Assembly: GCA_009923445.1 (NCBI GenBank)
Contig: RFTN01000002.1
Location: 102,436-166,435 of the forward strand
Direction of reading: 5' to 3'
Length of the DNA stretch: 64,000 nt
DNA from: a bacterium
GTDB lineage: Bacteria; Patescibacteriota; Saccharimonadia; Saccharimonadales; SZUA-47
This document shows positions 4,470 through 61,751 of the stretch, piece by piece; the stretch's first letter is position 1; every line of letters begins with the position of its first letter. The position numbers and the translations under genes were made by a program. Under the pieces are notes generated by a model. The model ran no database searches. It saw only the letters and a list, made by a program, of their open reading frames with translations, and was not told where the DNA came from.

Positions 4470-4511
4470 TATTTTTATTGTTACTTACTATACAAGCTAG
4501 TATACCATAAG

Positions 4512-6275
4512 TTAAGGATTAGATACGTTAAACGAATCGATTAACATGTTAGACAGCGCAGCAAAAAGAGGTGCTGCAGCTTGTGCGCCAGCGTACCCCG
4601 CCACACCCGGCTCGTTCACGCGAACAACTATGACGTACTGGGGATTGTCTTTTCCTACAAATCCCAAATAAGTTCCATTGTAGCGATCCTTATAGTAGCC
4701 ACCTTCTTCTTTGGCAATTTCAGCCGTACCCGTTTTACCACCAACAGTATAGCCATTACGTACTGCAGGACGATTATTTTTTTGAACTACGTAGTTCATT
4801 AAATCACGCATTTCTTTTGAAATTTGTGGTGTTACAACACCAGTACGTACTACCTCGGGTTTTTTGATAGTTTCGAAACCAACCTTTGAAATTGTTTTTT
4901 GAACAAGACGCGGCTTATAATATGTGCCGTCATTTATGACGGCTGCCAGTGCCGCGCCCATTTGCAGCGGCGTAGCAGTCATTCCCTGCCCAAATGCTGT
5001 GTTTGCGTAACGAATATTCAAGCCATATCCTTCGGTTGGGCTTGGTATAATTCCAGCTTCTTCATAGCCCTGCTCAATCCCGGTTTTGCTACCAAAACCA
5101 TATTGCTTTGTCATAAAATCATACCATTTTGTGCGGGCTTGATAATTTATTTGACCACCACCCATTTGCATTAAAAGCCATGTAGCCCCCGTGTTAAGCG
5201 AAAGCTGTAAGATATCTGCAATACTTCGCACACCCGCTCCACCGTCTTCTTCTATATTATTAATAGTCGCGTCGTCAACCTTAAATCTACTTGGATCATA
5301 ATACGTACTATCTTTTGTGACAACGCCGTACTGTAACGCTGCAGCAGCTGTAAGTGGCTTCATTATTGAACCGACTTCAAGTGGGGCACTAACCGAGGCA
5401 TTTAAGAACAAACCAGTATCTGCTACACTCGAAAATTCGCTTGGACTGTACGTCGGATAGTTTGCCATAGCTTTTATTGCGCCAGTTTTGGCTTCGAGTA
5501 TAAGTGCGCTTCCTGATTTACTTTTAGCGGCATCAAGACCTGACTTTAAAATATCCTCTAATTGGCGCTGCATTCCGACATCGATTGTCAGCACAACATC
5601 ATCACCTTCTGTCGGATCAATAAGAATGTTATCACCCGAGGCGAGCAATGGCACACCCTTTTGATCTGTTATGGCCTTCAAACGACCATCTTGACCTCTA
5701 AGCAAAGCATCGAGAGATTCTTCAACACCATATCTGCCCTTATTTGAGTCATCGACAAATCCAAGTAGCTGAGAGGCGAGTTCTCCCTGCGGATACGTAC
5801 GAATAGTAACCTCATCTTCAAACACACCGATAAGATCAAGTTGTTTTATGTTGACATGTACATCTTTAGTTTGTTTTTTAGCTAGAATGACATAGCGAGA
5901 ATTTTCACTAAGTTTACTTATTAAATCGTTAACGGGTAATGATAAAACCGGGGCCAATATTTCAGCGCTTTTCGAAGGATCTTTTATTAGTTTTGGATCA
6001 GCAATTATATTATAACGTTTCTCGTTTAAAACGAGTGGCACTACACTGCTCCCATCGAGTGCGCGTATTGTTCCGCGTTCTGCAGGAATGTCATATTGCT
6101 TTAACTGTCCCAGCAATGCCGACCTTTGATAATAGTCATGTCTGAACACTTGGAGATAAAAAAGTCTTGCTGTAAATATTCCAAATATAATAATAAGCAA
6201 CGTGTACCAAAGTGTAATACGCTGCTTTAAAATAGAATTTTTAGTGGATATACTTTCGTATGTATTTGTAAGCAT
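4512..6275 (-). CDS. ftsI: Class B penicillin-binding protein (FtsI/PBP2 transpeptidase)
   Basis: N-terminal TM anchor plus a dimerisation domain. Transpeptidase motifs are SxxK (SIMK), SxN (SLN) and KTG (KTGTA). Confidence 0.88.
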   Translation of the reverse strand: MLTNTYESISTKNSILKQRITLWYTLLIIIFGIFTARLFYLQVFRHDYYQRSALLGQLKQYDIPAERGTIRALDGSSVVPLVLNEKRYNIIADPKLIKDPSKSAEILAPVLSLPVNDLISKLSENSRYVILAKKQTKDVHVNIKQLDLIGVFEDEVTIRTYPQGELASQLLGFVDDSNKGRYGVEESLDALLRGQDGRLKAITDQKGVPLLASGDNILIDPTEGDDVVLTIDVGMQRQLEDILKSGLDAAKSKSGSALILEAKTGAIKAMANYPTYSPSEFSSVADTGLFLNASVSAPLEVGSIMKPLTAAAALQYGVVTKDSTYYDPSRFKVDDATINNIEEDGGAGVRSIADILQLSLNTGATWLLMQMGGGQINYQARTKWYDFMTKQYGFGSKTGIEQGYEEAGIIPSPTEGYGLNIRYANTAFGQGMTATPLQMGAALAAVINDGTYYKPRLVQKTISKVGFETIKKPEVVRTGVVTPQISKEMRDLMNYVVQKNNRPAVRNGYTVGGKTGTAEIAKEEGGYYKDRYNGTYLGFVGKDNPQYVIVVRVNEPGVAGYAGAQAAAPLFAALSNMLIDSFNVSNP

Positions 6276-23913: not shown

Positions 23914-24034
23914 GATTCTTTCTGGCAGATGAAGTGCAAGAAAGAGACGAGCAACGGAACGAATCGTACCAAAGCGGTACGATGAGTGAGTAGCACAAGC
24001 ATCTGCCGCAGCAATTCGCTGCCCAGAAAGGATC
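23914..24034 (+). promoter_or_regulatory. Structured 5' leader of rpmA with a sequestered Shine-Dalgarno
   Basis: A 12-bp helix GATTCTTTCTGG (23914-25) / CCAGAAAGGATC (24023-34) continues as CAGATG/CATCTG. Internal hairpins are CGTACC-aaagc-GGTACG and GCAGC-aattc-GCTGC. The 3' arm contains the AAAGGA SD, 8 nt before the ATG. Confidence 0.5.
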
Positions 24035-24040
24035 GATTAT

Positions 24041-24313
24041 ATGTCACATGTTAAAGCGGGCGGAACAGCCAAAAACACCAAAGACAGTCCCGGCCAGCGG
24101 CTTGGTATTAAGCGCAGTGGTGGCCAAACGGTTACCACGGGTCAAATTATCTTTAGGCAAATTGGCATGACCAAGCTACCAGGCAAAGGTACGACCATGA
24201 GCCGTAACTACACTATTCATGCTGCTAAAGACGGCGTTGTTACATTTATTACTCGCAGCAAAAAGACCTACACCGGCAAAACAGTTCGCCGCACCGAAAT
24301 CCAGGTTATTTAA
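24041..24313 (+). CDS. rpmA: 50S ribosomal protein L27
   Basis: The N-terminal block SHVKAGGTAKNTKDSPGQRLGIKRSGGQ matches the L27 consensus AHKKAGGS..NGRDS..KRLG.K..GG. Confidence 0.95.
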   Translation: MSHVKAGGTAKNTKDSPGQRLGIKRSGGQTVTTGQIIFRQIGMTKLPGKGTTMSRNYTIHAAKDGVVTFITRSKKTYTGKTVRRTEIQVI

Positions 24314-24321
24314 TTAACTCA

Positions 24322-24891
24322 ATGAGCAAAGCTTCAAATCCCCAGAGTATTCAGCCTCTGGGGATTGCTGTTTATACAGCTATTCTTACCGTAGTAGTAT
24401 GTTACTGTATTAAGCCTGAGCTTATAGGTATAAGATCGGCGTTTAGTTCACTCGGCGCCTTCCCTCCTACATCATATATATTTACGACTGGGTTTGTACT
24501 AACAGCCTTACTGCTACTAGTTGATGCCAAAGCAACAAAACGCCTGCTACAAAAAATCTGTCGCATAGTTGCAGCGACAGGCTTTTTTATGCTTGGCGTG
24601 TTTCAGATAGAACATGGCCAAATCAAGGGCGACCTACACCGTTTGGGTGGGCTTATAATGCTACTAGCAATTATTGTAAGCATGATTGCACACGTAATTA
24701 CCGAATGGCGCACTGCGTCTGCAAAACAGCATGCACTATACTCGATGTTTACTCTACTAGCTATAACTTCTGTTGTTATGTCAGTGCTATCTAGTAGTCA
24801 ATTTAAAGTTATGGCACTGCAGGGGCTTGCACAATACATTGGCATTGTTAGCCTTGTTGGCTGGGCTATGCTAGACAGCAAGCAGCGCTAA
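24322..24891 (+). CDS. Polytopic membrane protein, function unknown
   Basis: 189 aa with about 6 hydrophobic helices. Starts 8 nt after rpmA. Confidence 0.6.
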   Translation: MSKASNPQSIQPLGIAVYTAILTVVVCYCIKPELIGIRSAFSSLGAFPPTSYIFTTGFVLTALLLLVDAKATKRLLQKICRIVAATGFFMLGVFQIEHGQIKGDLHRLGGLIMLLAIIVSMIAHVITEWRTASAKQHALYSMFTLLAITSVVMSVLSSSQFKVMALQGLAQYIGIVSLVGWAMLDSKQR

Positions 24892-24942
24892 TTATTAATA
24901 ACCTACTTTAATTCTATAACGCAATGAGACTACGCCGTGTCA

Positions 24943-30113: not shown

Positions 30114-31337
30114 TTACTTTAGATATGCTTTGGCGGCGTCGATTTGCGGGTCGACACCATTTTTGATGTCTTGATCAGATATTTTTACTTCTTGATCGGG
30201 CTTAATACCCTCTTTATCAATATTTTTATCATTTGGGGTAAACCAACGAGCTATAGTTACTTTGAGCGTACCACCCGCCGATAAATCAATTATTTGCTGT
30301 ACGCTCCCCTTGCCATATGATGTTTCGCCTATGAGAGTCGCAACTTCGTTGTCGTGCAGTGCACCGGCGGTTATTTCACTGGCACTCGCACTACCGCCAT
30401 TTATAAGAACTGCCGTTTTTATACCCTTTAATGTCGGCGCTCCACTTGCTTTAAAGGTCTTTTCTACTTTTCCGCCACGTTTTTCAAGCAACACCACCTT
30501 GCCATTATCGAGCCACAAGCTACTTACTTTAACAGCAGCGTCAAGCAACCCGCCTGGGTTACCACGCATATCTAATATAACTCCGCGCACGTTTGCGTCC
30601 CGACACTCGGTTGCAGCTTTTTGCATGAGCGATGCAGTATCTTCGCCAAATCGACTCAGCGTAATGGTACATATGCCGTCTTTAATCTCCCACTTAACAC
30701 TCGGGATTGAAATTTTTCCGCGTGTAATAGTTAGCTCAACCTTATTGCCATCGCGAGCCAAGGTTAGTTTTACGTCTGTACCTGCCTTACCCCTTATAAG
30801 CTTTACCGCTTCTGCAATAGACATATCAGTTGCTTGGGTATCATCAATTTTAACAATTATATCTTTAGACTTTAAGCCTGCTTTTTCGGCCGGACTACCG
30901 GCTATCGGAGTTATTATTACGATATTGTTGCCATCTTTACCAAGCTCTGCGCCAATGCCTTCAAAGCTGCCACTTAGCTCATCACTAAAAGCCTTGCTGT
31001 CTTCGCTGTTAAAAAACTCAGTATACGGGTCACCAGCTGACTTTGCCGCACCAGACTTTAAGCTGTCCATGAGTTTAGTGTCGTCAATAGCGCCGTCATA
31101 GTTATCGCGGAGCGCCTTTACTACTTCATTAACCTCGTTAAAATTTTGTATATTACCGCGTACAGCCCCACTACTAAGGCTAGTGATTCCAATATTACCC
31201 CTGCCGAATGCCCAGCCGCTTGCAAAAAGCAATAAAGCCACTATGACGCTAGCTGCTGCATATACCGAGCGATTGGTCACCTCTGTGTTTACTTTTTTAC
31301 TCTTTGTGTCTTGTTCTTTTTTTAATGTCAACGCCAC
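30114..31337 (-). CDS. ctpA: S41 carboxy-terminal processing protease with PDZ domain
   Basis: N-terminal anchor, PDZ domain (SPAEKAGLKSKDIIVKIDD), catalytic blocks DMRGNPGG and GSASASEI, and YGKGSVQ. Confidence 0.88.
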   Translation of the reverse strand: MALTLKKEQDTKSKKVNTEVTNRSVYAAASVIVALLLFASGWAFGRGNIGITSLSSGAVRGNIQNFNEVNEVVKALRDNYDGAIDDTKLMDSLKSGAAKSAGDPYTEFFNSEDSKAFSDELSGSFEGIGAELGKDGNNIVIITPIAGSPAEKAGLKSKDIIVKIDDTQATDMSIAEAVKLIRGKAGTDVKLTLARDGNKVELTITRGKISIPSVKWEIKDGICTITLSRFGEDTASLMQKAATECRDANVRGVILDMRGNPGGLLDAAVKVSSLWLDNGKVVLLEKRGGKVEKTFKASGAPTLKGIKTAVLINGGSASASEITAGALHDNEVATLIGETSYGKGSVQQIIDLSAGGTLKVTIARWFTPNDKNIDKEGIKPDQEVKISDQDIKNGVDPQIDAAKAYLK

Positions 31338-31398: not shown

Positions 31399-32505
31399 TT
31401 ATGGGAATCTTATGTATTTATTGGCAAAGTTAGTCGAAACAGTTGCCTCACTATATTCACCCGAAACTTGCGCGTTGTACTGACTTATGCGCATGGTGCC
31501 GTTGTTATATACAGTCTCTACGTACACCACGTGCCCAAACGATCCACCCGTTAATACGCCAACATCTCCTGCTTGCGGTGAGTTATACTGCCATGCATCT
31601 GGAGCTGCGTTTACCCAGTTTTTGGCATTACCATAATACAGTGGCGCCTGACGACCAGAACGTTCGACCGCCCAAGCAGCATAACTGACGCACTGGCGCG
31701 TACAATAGCCCCATCTGTCTGGACCTTCACCAGGGCCACAACCCCAAGGAATCATACTAAACGCATAATCAGCATACGGATACCCGCCGTTATTACCATT
31801 ACCCCGCTCAAGCTGAATCTGTGCAAATAAAGCCCGGTTAACCTCAACCTGCTGGGCGCGCAAATCAGCAACAAGACTACGGTATCGTACTTCATCACCA
31901 CGTGTTTGGTCTAACAAGGCTTGACGGTCGTTGCGCTGGATAGCAACAGCGTCTTTTTGAGCTTGCTGCACCTTTAGTAGTTCTTCTTGCTCGAACTGCT
32001 GCTTTTGAATTTCTTGTTTGAGTGCAATAACTTTATCGGTCGACGTTTGTATGGCCGACTTAAGCCTCGTTAAGTATTCTTGACTGTCTATAAACTGCGA
32101 AAAACTATCACTACCAATTAGTAATTCGATTGGTGATGCACCACCTTTTTTATACAACGCACGCATACTGTCTTTTAACAGATCTTTTTGACGATCGAGT
32201 TCGGCCTGTGTCTCGTTGAGTTTATTTTGTAAGTCTTGTATTTTAAGATTTGTTTGTTCGATACGAGCATTTTCTTGGTCAATTTGTATATCAAGTGCAC
32301 CAACGGCTTTTTTTAAGCTATCTGCTTGTTGTGCGAGCTCTTTTGCCTTGGCTGTACCGGCGTTTATCTGCGACTGTAGCGTGTTTACCTGTTCTTGTAA
32401 CTGCACTGATGTAAGTGCGTGAACAGTACCCGAAAACATACCCGCCATTAGAATTGTACTGGCAATAAAAGTAAATAGTTTTTGTTTTAGACGAATAGTC
32501 TTCAT
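31399..32505 (-). CDS. PcsB/CwlO-like peptidoglycan hydrolase (coiled coil plus CHAP domain)
   Basis: Signal peptide, about 230 aa of Gln/Leu/Lys-rich coiled coil, and a C-terminal CHAP domain (catalytic Cys in YCTRQCVSYAAW, His in GHVVYVE). ATG at 32505 chosen. Confidence 0.8.
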   Translation of the reverse strand: MKTIRLKQKLFTFIASTILMAGMFSGTVHALTSVQLQEQVNTLQSQINAGTAKAKELAQQADSLKKAVGALDIQIDQENARIEQTNLKIQDLQNKLNETQAELDRQKDLLKDSMRALYKKGGASPIELLIGSDSFSQFIDSQEYLTRLKSAIQTSTDKVIALKQEIQKQQFEQEELLKVQQAQKDAVAIQRNDRQALLDQTRGDEVRYRSLVADLRAQQVEVNRALFAQIQLERGNGNNGGYPYADYAFSMIPWGCGPGEGPDRWGYCTRQCVSYAAWAVERSGRQAPLYYGNAKNWVNAAPDAWQYNSPQAGDVGVLTGGSFGHVVYVETVYNNGTMRISQYNAQVSGEYSEATVSTNFANKYIRFP

Positions 32506-32590
32506 CACCTTAGTATTATAGCATAAGTACACAACACCTTTTTGCTTACCACAGAGGCTTCTTTATGTTGTTTTGAGGAATCAATCTTTT

Positions 32591-32612
32591 CAACTTTTGA
32601 TGTCAAAAGTTG
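32591..32612. repeat. 10-bp perfect inverted repeat with 2-nt spacer
   Basis: CAACTTTTGA-tg-TCAAAAGTTG, about 85 nt upstream of the PcsB-like start codon. Confidence 0.7.
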
Positions 32613-33152
32613 AGCAAAACCACTGGGACCAAAGCTTTCGTGGTATGCCCCTAATTGTAAAAAACAACACTGCTCGGCAGAACTCCCCGCCAGCTGGAGG
32701 GTCGGGATTATTTTTTCTAAATATTTTAGGTAGAAAAAATAACCATGCTGCCTCCTTTTAAGTGTTATTTTTATACAATGGGCATCCAGGAAAGACTTTG
32801 ATAGTCCCAGACCATATTAGTAACCATAGCTCTAGCGATAGCTCGACCACAAAGTGGTCGCACCGCCATTCTAAGAACACCCAACAGGTGGAGTGGTTAT
32901 ATTACGGAATAGTTTCTGAGGGCTTCATTTTTTACCTACTTAAAGTTAACTAGTAAAAAATGTGCACCAGAGCGCAATCCCGAAGAACCGTAAAATAGGC
33001 AGTACACATGCTGGAGTGTTTTTAGCATGGCACGGTTTTGGGTTCCGTTTTGCCAAGACAAAATGGAACAAAGAAATCAAACCATAGGTTTGAAAGAAAT
33101 TTTGCCACCAAAAGTGTGAAAGAGGCCTCTTCTGAAAGCAGAAAATAAGATT

Positions 33153-34100
33153 TTACCAGTGCTTGAGTTTGAGGTGTTTGTTCATTGCCAACATACTCGA
33201 AAAAATACCAACCATTATACCTACTAGTATTGCTCCTGCGAGCGATATAAGCATGACTGATGTGCTTGTAAATAGTGCGTAGCTAGCCGAAAACTCTGCT
33301 TGGTTTTGTATTTTTGGACCAATGCTTAATATGGCTGTGTAAACAGCGACATTTGCCAGCACGCCCGCAATAAAACCGTACATACACGACTCAACTAAAA
33401 ATGGTCCGCGTATGTAATTTGGTGTAGCGCCAATCAATTTCATAATACGAATTTCTTCACTCCTTGTAAAAATCGCCATACGAATAGTATTAAAAATTAT
33501 TAGCACAGACACTGCGGCAAATAATATTGCTGCAAAAATACTACCCCGAGTTATATAGCGCTGAGCACTGGTTGCGCGCTCGATAGTTTCTTTGGCGACA
33601 TCGTTTTTACCAACCGATACGTCGTCAACAACGTCTTTATAACCCTGCTCTTTTGCGATAGCTACAATGCTATTACTCTTAGATAAATCGGTCAGCGATA
33701 CTTCAAGTGACTCTGGTAGCGTCGTTGCACCGGTCAGGGCTAGAGCTTGCTCGATAAAAGCTTTATCTTGCTGATTTTGATTTGTTTTAAAGCGGCGCTC
33801 AGCCTCTCTTCGATCTACGAAAGTAATGTTATCGACACCTTCTTGTGACTGGAGCCTTGCCTTAACCATGTCCCGACGCTCCTCGGTGGCACCATCTTTT
33901 AAATATATTGTAACTTTTATTTTTTTACTAAGTTCTTTGACTGCATTACCCGTAGATACGTGCAAAACAACTGCACCCAACATTATTGTTAGGGCAACAG
34001 TCATAACTGCCGTTGCTGCTATAGAAAGCCATGCGTTTCGCAAAAAATTGTTACCACCGGCTTTTGTAACACGCCAAAATGCGTTTAACTTACGCTTCAT
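33153..34100 (-). CDS. ftsX: Cell division ABC transporter permease FtsX
   Basis: 4-TM FtsX topology with a large first extracytoplasmic loop. Overlaps ftsE by 4 nt. Confidence 0.9.
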   Translation of the reverse strand: MKRKLNAFWRVTKAGGNNFLRNAWLSIAATAVMTVALTIMLGAVVLHVSTGNAVKELSKKIKVTIYLKDGATEERRDMVKARLQSQEGVDNITFVDRREAERRFKTNQNQQDKAFIEQALALTGATTLPESLEVSLTDLSKSNSIVAIAKEQGYKDVVDDVSVGKNDVAKETIERATSAQRYITRGSIFAAILFAAVSVLIIFNTIRMAIFTRSEEIRIMKLIGATPNYIRGPFLVESCMYGFIAGVLANVAVYTAILSIGPKIQNQAEFSASYALFTSTSVMLISLAGAILVGIMVGIFSSMLAMNKHLKLKHW

Positions 34101-34790: not shown

Positions 34791-35879
34791 CTAACGCTTA
34801 GCTGTGAGTAAGTAGGCTGCTATACATTCGTCGATATCACCCTCTAGCACGCCCTGTGTATCACTTGTTTCGTAGCCGCTGCGTACATCTTTTACCATTT
34901 TATATGGGTGAAGCACATAGTTACGGATTTGGTTACCCCATGCTGCCTGTTCGTTTGGTCCGCGTAGTTCAGATACCTTTTTATCATGCTGTTCTTGCTG
35001 CAGCGCTGCTAATTTTGATCGTAGTATTGTCATTGCTGTTTCGCGGTTTTGTAGCTGTGAACGTTCGTTTTGGATTGCAACGACAATGCCAGACGGAATA
35101 TGTGTAACACGTACAGCACTATCGGTTGTGTTAACACTCTGCCCGCCCTTACCGCCACTACGGTATACATCAATTTTCAGTTCTTTTTCGTCAATTGTTA
35201 TGTCGGCTTCATTTTCGATTTTAGGAACTACTTCAACACGAGCAAAACTCGTTTGCCTTAAGCTGTCAGCATTAAAAGGACTTAGGCGCACGAGCCTATG
35301 TACGCCGTGTTCTGAGCGTAACTTGCCATACAAAAATGATCCTGAATCAATTGCGAACGTTACACTTTTTATACCAGCTTCATCACCATCAGATTTATCT
35401 AGTATCGTCGTTTTAAGCTTGTGATTTTCTGCCCAGCGCGTATACATGCGTAGCAACATTGCAGCCCAGTCTTGAGCATCGGTCCCACCTGCCCCTGCAT
35501 ATATACTCATAACGACATCGTACTTGTCGTATGGATGTGAAAAATCTAGTTCTATTTTGGCTGTTTTAAACTGATTTTGTAGTTGTGTAAGATTTGCAGA
35601 TATTTCGACTTGCATACTGGCATCGTTCATCTCAGATAATTCTTTTAAAGTCTGTGCACCCTGCCGAAGCTCTGTCCATGTATCAAGAGTACGTTTTGCT
35701 TCTGCTGCTTGCTTGCTTACCGCCTGCGCTTGAGCTTGATCGTTCCAAAAATCTGCTGCCGACATAGTAACCTCGGCATCAGCTACGGTTTTTTGTAAAT
35801 CTGCTATTGGTACTTTTTTTATAGCATTATTAACAGATGTATAAAATTCACTCACTGCTGTTGTAACACTGTCTTGCAT
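34791..35879 (-). CDS. prfB: Peptide chain release factor 2
   Basis: SPF tripeptide (RLSPFNA) and GGQ (SGGKGGQSVN). A single uninterrupted ORF, with no programmed +1 frameshift site. Confidence 0.93.
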   Translation of the reverse strand: MQDSVTTAVSEFYTSVNNAIKKVPIADLQKTVADAEVTMSAADFWNDQAQAQAVSKQAAEAKRTLDTWTELRQGAQTLKELSEMNDASMQVEISANLTQLQNQFKTAKIELDFSHPYDKYDVVMSIYAGAGGTDAQDWAAMLLRMYTRWAENHKLKTTILDKSDGDEAGIKSVTFAIDSGSFLYGKLRSEHGVHRLVRLSPFNADSLRQTSFARVEVVPKIENEADITIDEKELKIDVYRSGGKGGQSVNTTDSAVRVTHIPSGIVVAIQNERSQLQNRETAMTILRSKLAALQQEQHDKKVSELRGPNEQAAWGNQIRNYVLHPYKMVKDVRSGYETSDTQGVLEGDIDECIAAYLLTAKR

Positions 35880-57448: not shown

Positions 57449-58855
57449 CTAAAATGTCGGTGTTGCTATGAAGTCGACGCTAGTTGTATAGCTACCAGTA
57501 GGCGTAACTACACCTGCGGCGGCACCGAAGCGTATAATTAACGCTTCGCTTGCAACAACCTTGATTGTTGATGCTGCTGAGCTTGCTATAGTTACTGCCG
57601 CACCTGTTTGTTGCCATGCAAAACCAGTAGTCGTGTCGTATGTACCAGATGTACCAGGTACGAATGTACCGCCAATGTACCCTGACTGTGGGCGTAAGTT
57701 GACTGTTCCTGTTGAGTAGTCACATGTATATCCGCCGTTAACGGCAGTGGGTACGTTAAAACATGCCACACCACCAATAGTCATACCAAATTCTTCGACA
57801 CCATTAGCTAACGCCGTTTGGGTAGTAGAGCTGTTAAAACATTGGTCGTTTGAACTTGAACCTGCATCTAGTATTGAGGAGCCAGTACATGTAACACCGG
57901 GTACTTTTAGGCGTCCGCCCGTTGCGCCGTCTTGCACCACCTGGTAAGCAACTATTACTCCGTTGTTAGCGTTTGTAGATAGCAGAGCGTAGGCGTTACG
58001 GGCGTCGCCGCCGTTAGGAGTCACCGGAACTGGAGTTACAGAAGTTGCACTACTTGATATTACGCCAAGATCTACACTGGTACCATCTGCAAGGGAGCAT
58101 GATGTAACATCGGCAGTATCTCCAGCGTTACGCAGTGCATCGTTACCGTTGGAGCCAATTGTGTTTGTTGTTGTTGTACCAATACAGAATGTTAATGATT
58201 CCAGGACACGGGCATTAATAGTAATTCGTTGGTTAAAAGATACAGCGACCACGCCGGTGTCGACAGCTGTCGTATAGGCGTTATCGCTGTAGGTTGTCAT
58301 GCGAATATACACAGTACCAGCAACAGAAGGAGCGGTCAGGCCACCAATGGTGTGGGTTACTGCACCGGTACCTGCGGTAGCGGCTGTACGATTGTAGCAT
58401 GCAAACGAAGCAGTAGATTGCAAGCAGCCGGCAGTATCGGTAGTAAGATTTCTTGGCGCAAACGCAGTTGCGTTAGCTGGAAAACCAGTCTGAGCTACAT
58501 GTGTTGTTGAGGTACGAGCGTCTAAACCAGTTGGCAAAGTACATGTACCTAGAGGTGTGGTGCAAAAATGATAGGTTAAGCTTTGAACGGTGGCATTTGC
58601 GGGTATGGTAAAGCCAAAAATAACCTGAACGGTTGAAGAGCCAGGGTTTGGTGCGTCAATAGTAGCGGAGCGATTAGTAAGTTGGGCGGCATTAGCGGAG
58701 CTGTGCATTAGCGTAACTAATGACAATAATATCAACATACTTACTGCTACGTTCAAAGACCTCTTGCCAATGGTCTGTATGTTTACATTTATCAACGTTT
58801 TTACCTTTGTTTTATATGTGTACCTCTTTATTTGTACCATAAGCAAAATTATCAT
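57449..58855 (-). CDS. Secreted Thr/Ala/Gly-rich, Cys-containing surface protein, function unknown
   Basis: Signal peptide ending SSANA/AQ. The mature region is rich in Thr, Gly and Ala and has about 12 Cys. No anchor motif recognised. The true start may be an internal TTG or ATG. Confidence 0.6.
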   Translation of the reverse strand: MIILLMVQIKRYTYKTKVKTLINVNIQTIGKRSLNVAVSMLILLSLVTLMHSSANAAQLTNRSATIDAPNPGSSTVQVIFGFTIPANATVQSLTYHFCTTPLGTCTLPTGLDARTSTTHVAQTGFPANATAFAPRNLTTDTAGCLQSTASFACYNRTAATAGTGAVTHTIGGLTAPSVAGTVYIRMTTYSDNAYTTAVDTGVVAVSFNQRITINARVLESLTFCIGTTTTNTIGSNGNDALRNAGDTADVTSCSLADGTSVDLGVISSSATSVTPVPVTPNGGDARNAYALLSTNANNGVIVAYQVVQDGATGGRLKVPGVTCTGSSILDAGSSSNDQCFNSSTTQTALANGVEEFGMTIGGVACFNVPTAVNGGYTCDYSTGTVNLRPQSGYIGGTFVPGTSGTYDTTTGFAWQQTGAAVTIASSAASTIKVVASEALIIRFGAAAGVVTPTGSYTTSVDFIATPTF

Positions 58856-61598: not shown

Positions 61599-61751
61599 AG
61601 GATTTATGCGTTTGCACCTTTTTAGCAAAAAACTCCGGTTCGCGCTCACAGTACCAAAAAGTACATTTCAGATACGATCCTCGTTTTTAACCAAAAATGC
61701 GCTAAACACAATAAACCCTATACGGTATCGTGTAGAATAATAAGGACATAC

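Follow-up and report, generated by a model that had tools for sequence, protein, structure and literature searches.

Between ftsX and the gene of a PcsB-like coiled-coil CHAP hydrolase (pcsB), the 64-kb stretch of Saccharibacteria DNA analysed here (the window, from contig RFTN01000002.1) contains a non-coding gap of 644 nt, 33152-32509 when counted to the conserved GTG start of pcsB. Comparison with relatives indicates that the gap is an insertion, and that the insert is built from two arms, arm A (33093-32861) and arm B (32810-32591), which appear to be inverted copies of one structured unit. We give a probability of about 0.5 to the explanation that the insert is a composite foldback element, i.e. 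non-autonomous mobile or recombining DNA of the kind of MITEs (miniature transposable elements with inverted repeats) or mobile insertion cassettes (MICs). This foldback, MITE or empty-cassette reading is based on the inverted ends, a variable passenger gene, a solo end, the absence from sister lineages, an allelic replacement within one species and the location between a stop codon and a promoter.

To follow the junction in relatives we used freshwater Saccharibacteria metagenome-assembled genomes (MAGs), with loci labelled L001 and onwards. The FtsX orthologues in L001-L005 are 74-88% identical to that of the window. In L001, L002 and L005, which include two of the closest relatives (FtsX ~84% identical), the ftsX-pcsB spacer is ~30-45 nt long, and in L069 it is 106 nt. 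The last ~40 nt of the gap alone aligns to the short spacers, homology resuming at ~32551-32545, and a tblastx search of the gap against L001-L006 returned nothing better than E 0.15. Because several relatives, two among the closest, have 30-45 nt at this junction, the alignments show the gap as an insertion of ~600 nt relative to sister lineages, between the ftsX stop and what is probably the pcsB promoter. Other lineages carry other material here. L003 and L004 have an unannotated open reading frame (ORF) of 202 aa without a Pfam match (L003 4337-4945), L011/L012 and L013 have a different structured element of ~125 nt after ftsX, named 'Z', and L070 has ftsX, then Z, a HIT gene and the hydrolase gene.

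Both arms are also found away from ftsX. A metagenome scan with an 18-mer common to the window and locus L014 gave 21 matches, one of which, L037, was a true homologue. On one strand, L037 reads arm A, the gene of a 223-aa HAD hydrolase and arm B, next to which lies a convergent ROK kinase gene with its 3' end towards the arm; the arm A side adjoins an unrelated ORF. Its arm A (11277-11077) is 71.5% identical to that of the window (E 2e-20) and its arm B (10340-10143) 74.6% identical (E 8e-31). There is no ftsX, no pcsB and no gene in common with the window in L037, so by sequence similarity the arm modules do occur at an unrelated locus, flanking a gene. Orthologues of the HAD gene (65% identity), which lie beside gyrA and a 16S rRNA gene, are without arms.

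At the ftsX locus itself the content varies between closely related strains. In L014 (FtsX 83% identical to that of the window) ftsX is followed by 142 nt and a HIT gene, after which 231 nt match arm B (4479-4695, 77% identity, E 4e-41). L068 has the layout of the window, with arm A directly after the ftsX stop, a linker and arm B, and in L066 arm A likewise starts right after ftsX. The ftsX DNA of L068 and L014 is 98.3% identical, which places them in the same species, and their arm B sequences are 83% identical only. The site therefore appears to be polymorphic within one species, ftsX-arm A-linker-arm B in L068 versus ftsX-142 nt-HIT-arm B in L014. All five contigs of this lineage (L014, L015, L066, L067, L068) end at or inside the element, L068 stopping in an Illumina adapter, whereas contigs of the arm-less lineages run through the site; such contig ends are consistent with strain heterogeneity or repeats. 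What lies beyond arm B in L014 is found again, in reverse orientation, on the far side of ftsX in L066. Taken by site, the junction is empty in L001, L002, L005 and L069 and filled in the window, L068 and L066, and L037 provides the unrelated locus. Presence and absence at one site together with non-orthologous copies, as looked for in MITEs and foldback elements, were thus found.

The relation between the two arms was examined with R1, a 190-position covariance model of the arm B long hairpin. R1 finds three arm B copies at 185-222 bits, and it matches arm A of L037 over the full length on the opposite strand (45.9 bits, E 8e-10). Reciprocal cross-matches between arm A and arm B were obtained with nhmmer. 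When arm A of L037 is aligned locally with arm B, z is 20 for the reverse complement and 1.7 for the direct orientation of arm B. The order of the helices is mirrored as well, with the outer hairpin and the short hairpin outermost in both arms. Taken together, the alignments and models identify arms A and B as inverted paralogues, and arm A against reverse-complemented arm B supplies the terminal inverted repeats expected of a MITE or foldback element. At the level of the gap as a whole, its left half is weakly similar to the reverse complement of its right half (z 4.2). The idea that the gap is one giant palindrome was dropped; a global alignment of the gap with its own reverse complement returns the symmetry of arm A only.

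Each arm consists of a short hairpin and a ~180-nt long hairpin with a three-way junction; all features below are given on the minus strand, in which ftsX and pcsB are read. The left outer segment (33094-33152), which is absent from L001, L002 and L005, contains the palindrome AGAGGCCTCT at 33121-33130; direct and inverted repeat pairs were detected in it, and it weakly resembles 32545-32590 in inverted orientation. Next comes the outer hairpin TCAAACC-TAT-GGTTTGA followed by TTTCTTTGTT (33067-33093), the first helix of unit A, which a consensus scan marks as terminator-like. L037 and L068 have a hairpin in the same place (CAAACC-TTGCA-GGTTTG and CCC-TTGCA-GGG, respectively), and in its sequence the outer hairpin looks like a terminator for transcripts from ftsX. 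The short hairpin of arm A, GTTCCATTTTG-TCTTGG-CAAAACGGAAC (33042-33069), a mirror counterpart of the one in arm B, corresponds to helix 1 of alignment A10 and has double compensatory changes in 4 of its 12 pairs. The long hairpin (32861-33041; homologues L037 11277-11077 and L068 2524-2733) encloses a small junction hairpin, TGCGC-TCTG-GTGCA (32963-32976), and an A/T-rich hairpin, CATTTTTTAC/GTAAAAAATG (32926-32962).

Between the arms lies an inner GC hairpin, CGACCAC-TTT-GTGGTCG (32844-32860, helix 7 of A10), whose position holds other sequences in L037 (CATGGTCG/CGACCATG) and L068 (GGCTTCA/TGAAGCC), with double changes in five of eight pairs. It is followed by the linker motif GAGCTATCGCTAGA (32831-32844), a 14-mer that the window and L037 share without a mismatch; the HAD gene of L037 sits between this motif and arm B. 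The long hairpin of arm B (32623-32810; homologues L014 4479-4695 and L037 10340-10143) has an almost invariant core of ~100 nt, GGCAGC..GGTTATTTTTTCTACCTAAA..GAAAAAATAATCCCGAC..GGAGTTCTGCCGAGCAGTGTTG. The short hairpin of arm B, CAACTTTTGA-CA-TCAAAAGTTG (32591-32612), is helix 6 of alignment A6 and has double compensatory changes in 4 of 9 pairs, with 100% of the cells paired. The right outer segment (32545-32590), absent from the relatives with short spacers, contains AAGAAGCCTCT at 32553-32563 and TGGTAA at 32546-32551. The same TGGTAA is found at 33153-33158, i.e. at both borders of the insert, and may be part of inverted ends.

All four local stems that a preliminary description had listed in the gap are present in the sequence. 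Three of them, the inner GC hairpin, the small junction hairpin of arm A and the short hairpin of arm B, are kept in the homologues via compensatory changes, whereas its 'GC-only stem' is specific to this genome: it is the GC-rich extension (32685-32701) of the small junction hairpin in arm B, a ~9-nt insertion absent from L014 and L037. This junction hairpin is a point of expansion, as L068 carries another hairpin, CCTGCCT-GACGG-TAGGCAGG, in this very place (~2935-2965).

Covariation was counted over three sequences per arm, and the counts are indicative rather than calibrated, although consistent in every helix. For arm B, 98.6% of the cells in 73 pairs are paired, and 13 pairs show double changes. 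When the partners are slid by 1-3 columns, 0-2 pairs with double changes are left. For arm A the values are 83 pairs, 89.5% paired cells and 25 pairs with double changes, against 3-5 in the slid controls. None of 500 shuffles reaches the observed value in either arm. The check for covariation in relatives, suggested in the preliminary description, thus gave strong compensatory change in both arms, and the folds appear clearly conserved and covarying. In arm B the outer stems vary and the junction and loops are almost invariant over ~100 nt, including CUACCUAAA, CCCGAC and CUGCCGAGCAG. The consensus fold of the reverse-complement alignment of arm B is equally good. Three G-U pairs that are invariant in the core of arm B, and would be mismatches on the other strand, weakly favour the minus strand of the window for this arm.

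The folding energy of the gap itself is extreme. The minimum free energy as RNA is -224.5 kcal/mol on the minus strand (z -8.1) and -219.7 kcal/mol on the plus strand (z -12.7), both z-scores against dinucleotide shuffles, and folding as single-stranded DNA (ssDNA) gives z = -11.9. Among 213 windows of 600 nt over the 64 kb, the gap is the top folding outlier on both strands, ~63 kcal/mol (~5 standard deviations) under the GC-corrected expectation. The dense structure proposed for the gap is therefore far beyond chance, and it is conserved in the homologues.

The gene order on the minus strand is secA, M16 peptidase, prfB, ftsE (34774-34097), ftsX (34100-33153), the gap, the coiled-coil CHAP hydrolase gene (32508-31399), ctpA and pyrG. 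The insert begins right after the TAA stop of ftsX. Pfam agrees with the names given to both flanking genes, with the families FtsX and FtsX_ECD for the former and CHAP (2.7e-15) and CC_PcsB (2.6e-6) for the latter. The gap is the largest spacer in the window according to a crude gene map, in which the runners-up are ~300 nt and most spacers are below 100 nt. No ORF inside it has a Pfam match, and gene callers placed no gene there in four independent public assemblies of the same genome, so the large non-coding gap of the preliminary description is real. In L007-L010, which have an identical FtsX and represent the same genome, the gap is 100% identical, leaving no variation to compare.

A known structured RNA, as had been expected in the gap, was not recovered. 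Rfam 15 (4227 covariance models) gave no match at the gathering score in the whole window; for 32300-33400, a threshold of E<=10 returned chance-level matches only, PreQ1 (17 bits, inside ftsX) and mir-1246, and at E<=1 there was no match in L011, L013, L014, L068 or L070. A tRNA and tmRNA scan of the window was empty. No sigma-70-type site was found in the gap under the rule used in the promoter scan. BLAST against a phage collection gave no match to the gap and against a plasmid collection a chance-level match only, and pattern scans of IMG/VR for the element returned chance matches in coding DNA only. Two more specific RNA candidates were considered and rejected. A T-box likeness of AAUUAGGGGCAUACCACG was discarded, as the sequence is not kept in L037 and has no Rfam match. 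For 6S RNA there is no match to the Rfam model, and the consensus folds have small internal loops and a three-way junction, with no large central bubble.

Downstream of the insert, pcsB seems to have a promoter of its own. The pattern TGnTATAMT-N6-GTG precedes the hydrolase gene in 9 of 10 lineages (the window, L001, L002, L003, L005, L011, L013, L069 and L070), whatever lies upstream. In the window it consists of the extended -10 box TGCTATAAT (32515-32523, minus strand), 6 nt and the GTG at 32506-32508. It is probably an extended -10 promoter giving a leaderless or nearly leaderless pcsB mRNA, and the hydrolase starts in the annotations, GTG 32532 in this genome and different GTGs in the others, probably lie too far upstream. 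The edge of the gap at 32533 in the preliminary description was taken from the first in-frame GTG and has to be moved to the conserved start, GTG 32508; the gap itself stands. As the conserved promoter is located 3' of the whole insert, the insert would lie upstream of the promoter and would not be a 5' leader of pcsB. Although adjacent, ftsEX and pcsB are probably transcribed separately, with the outer hairpin and its T-tract probably ending ftsEX transcription and leaving pcsB to its leaderless promoter. The idea that the gap ties the regulation of the hydrolase to FtsEX, hinted at in the preliminary description, is not supported: the hydrolase keeps its own promoter, and the arms are also found at a locus without ftsX and pcsB (L037). 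The element probably does not regulate the hydrolase gene.

In the composite foldback element that we propose, two inverted and diverged copies of one structured unit of ~230-290 nt would form the ends. From outside to inside, a unit would comprise a small hairpin and its T-rich tail, then a short hairpin, the ~180-nt three-way-junction hairpin and the inner GC hairpin. The units would meet at the short linker, where a passenger gene can sit, HAD in L037 and nothing in this genome, and L014 would have a solo end beside a different small gene (HIT). Insertion would have occurred between the ftsX stop and the self-contained pcsB promoter, a safe harbour where relatives carry other material. The units may be moved in trans by a transposase or recombinase, or by homologous recombination on the conserved cores, and the reading of the ends, as single-stranded DNA or as RNA, may be what keeps the hairpins.

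Several observations weigh against this explanation. The homologues all come from metagenome assemblies, with three to four copies per arm. There is no further copy of either arm in the window, so a high copy number is unsupported, and no transposase or recombinase adjoins any arm copy seen. A convincing target-site duplication was not found, and none is evident in L037. In the window, arm A and the reverse complement of arm B are similar at z ~4 only, because the arm A core of the window has diverged. Stems that change in a compensatory way around near-invariant junctions and loops characterise functional RNAs no less than transposon ends, and the G-U pairs kept in the arm B core point the same way. 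In its length, three-way-junction fold, compensatory upkeep, nearly invariant core and low apparent copy number, and in lacking a clear target-site duplication and a transposase near the copies seen, the element is unlike a textbook MITE, and these features keep two other explanations alive, one with RNA genes and one with sites that act as ssDNA.

According to the former, the arms would be genes of a new structured non-coding RNA (ncRNA) family of ~230-290 nt, two paralogues on opposite strands that act in trans or form stable 3' ends and drift in position. The strong covariation in both arms, the stems that vary around near-invariant junctions and loops (CUACCUAAA, CCCGAC, CUGCCGAGCAG), the G-U pairs in the arm B core and the low copy number are all in line with this, and four of seven units follow, in the arm A sense, directly after a co-directional stop codon (ftsX in the window, L068 and L066; ROK in L037). 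A conserved promoter or an intrinsic terminator in a consistent position was not found, however, and in the arm A sense the terminator-like hairpin precedes the folded part. Further, the consensus folds are equally good on both strands, no Rfam family matches, several close relatives lack the arms here and the site is polymorphic within a species, while a housekeeping RNA would hardly account for an inverted pair that encloses a passenger gene. On balance we regard RNA genes as possible and doubtful. We consider it unlikely that the folded units are sites acting as ssDNA, either a single-strand origin, a recombination site of an integrated or former plasmid-like element or an attC-like site, with the gap as a remnant after integration or cassette loss. 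Compensatory upkeep of hairpins is known for attC sites, REPINs and IS200/IS605 ends, folding with DNA parameters is just as strong (z -11.9), and small passenger genes (HAD, HIT) are located immediately upstream of arm B. The opposite strand of the linker carries TAGCGA, which may resemble CS-6 of ssoA. On the other hand, no integrase, Rep or relaxase is nearby, the units are far longer than attC (57-141 nt) and inverted rather than direct, R''/R' core sites were not recognised by eye, and plasmid and phage collections and IMG/VR scans gave no match beyond chance level.

The two remaining explanations, both very improbable and both rejected, start from the neighbouring genes. In one, the stretch would be a cis-regulatory leader (riboswitch or attenuator) that ties the PcsB-like hydrolase to FtsEX. 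Cell-wall hydrolase genes are riboswitch-controlled in other phyla, e.g. by cyclic di-AMP (c-di-AMP, ydaO), the stretch is highly structured and directly upstream of the hydrolase gene, and a strong Shine-Dalgarno sequence precedes a 6-codon mini-ORF at 32757-32725 (AAGGAGG-N5-ATG). The leader peptide was rejected as a candidate: its ATG is TTT/AGG in L014, i.e. not conserved, and the region is a conserved helix. The extended -10 box and GTG are 3' of the whole element and the same in relatives without it, no Rfam riboswitch matches, and in L037 arm B is followed by the convergent ROK 3' end and not by a hydrolase gene, with arm A preceding the HAD gene. In the other, which we find even harder to credit, the stretch would be a decayed gene, as also envisaged in the preliminary description, that once stood between ftsX and pcsB, such as the 202-aa ORF (L003/L004) or the HIT gene (L014/L070). 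Other lineages do have a gene at the junction and the length of the gap is about right, yet tblastx and blastn against those loci return arm B itself only, with no translated similarity at the same site, and several relatives are simply without the sequence. The extreme folding energy, the covarying helices over most of the length and the homologous modules in L037 and L068, which are non-coding too, contradict it further.

We compared the proposed foldback element with known systems. Like MITEs, foldback elements and MICs, it is non-coding, has two inverted homologous ends, varies in presence among close relatives and within a species, occurs at unrelated loci with a passenger gene in one copy, and has found its safe harbour in an intergenic site beside a terminator. 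Mobile insertion cassettes have inverted ends around passenger genes without a transposase. It differs from these systems in its very long ends (230-290 nt), each a three-way-junction hairpin kept by compensatory changes, in having no clear target-site duplication and no known cognate transposase, and in its single copy in 64 kb. With REPIN/REP doublets and IS200/IS605 ends it shares hairpin-forming intergenic DNA with compensatory stems after gene ends, and the presence of a second dispersed hairpin family (Z) in the same genomes recalls REPINs and REPs. However, REP units are 20-40 nt long with tens to hundreds of copies, the units here are ~10x longer with a conserved junction core, and no RAYT or TnpA gene was seen here.

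Integron attC sites are likewise imperfect palindromes right downstream of small passenger genes (here HAD and HIT), with strain-variable cassette content and a structure better conserved than the stem sequence. But attC sites are 57-141 nt long, with R''/R' cores and a direct orientation; the units here are 230-290 nt long and inverted with a highly conserved core, no integrase or array was found, and RYYYAAC...GTTRRRY cores were checked by eye only. The large RNAs OLE, ROOL, GOLLD, HEARO and raiA belong to the same several-hundred-nt class with dense covarying structure, a patchy distribution and sometimes an association with mobile elements. They differ in that no Rfam model matches here, and in that we see two inverted paralogous units and not one asymmetric RNA. 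The c-di-AMP (ydaO) riboswitch is also a structured element adjoining a peptidoglycan hydrolase gene; the element here, in contrast, is upstream of the promoter, is also found away from hydrolase genes and has no Rfam match.

Saccharibacteria and other members of the candidate phyla radiation (CPR) have small, tightly packed genomes that are thought to be poor in repeated or mobile DNA. Here, one element with an elaborate fold, whose family has no Rfam match, takes up ~1% of the 64-kb stretch. The literature, the coverage of which was incomplete, held no account of Saccharibacteria repeats or ncRNAs like these, and the family is most likely a new one. Should the element prove mobile or recombining, it would point to a place and a way in which gene cassettes are turned over in these epibionts, and the interval between the ftsX stop and the pcsB promoter would be a possible neutral integration site for the Saccharibacteria genetic tools under development. 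If it is an RNA, it would represent a new class of large structured RNAs. A bolder proposal, which we hold to be a long shot, is that the units form a new class of large structured elements specific to Saccharibacteria/CPR, RNA or ssDNA modules of ~230-290 nt with a three-way junction, inverted pairs of which bracket and exchange gene cassettes. The cassettes would then be none here, HAD in L037 and HIT beside one unit in L014. If true, these naturally competent bacteria with reduced genomes would have a cassette system of an integron-like or homology-arm type, and the near-invariant ~100-nt core would be the part recognised by a protein.

The second structured intergenic family, Z, is ~110-130 nt long, has the conserved core ..GAGCGAAtAACTcCGTTCCGCaCTCGTCGTGCC..GCACGCcTcGTTTACgGTACTCgTT.. 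and no Rfam match; its closing stem and its inner hairpin covary. In relatives, Z shares the ftsX-pcsB junction as an insertion hot spot, with copies after the ftsX stop in L011 (2345-2469), L013 (3950-4072) and L070 (1011-1130). A copy was found in L037 (7447-7343, E 9e-12), and diverged copies are located in intergenic gaps of the window at 61611-61703 on the plus strand and at 28007-27901 and 44520-44464 on the minus strand (nhmmer E 6e-5 to 2e-3).

Some minor observations were made on other parts of the window and on the relatives. Weaker folding outliers, on one strand, are found at 24001-24900 and 57901-58500, with residuals of ~-25 to -32 kcal/mol. The prfB gene (34791-35879) reads through as one ORF without interruption, and nothing in it points to the usual programmed frameshift. 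In L055, Rfam explains a 2-kb 'empty' stretch as a 16S rRNA gene. Two of the MAGs of the same genome, otherwise 100% identical, lack pieces of the window, L007 ~31943-32309 and 30353-30793 and L010 ~31693-31939. The absent pieces are internal segments of the pcsB coiled coil and of ctpA, and the genes are split; either the assemblies collapsed here or the population contains real deletion variants.

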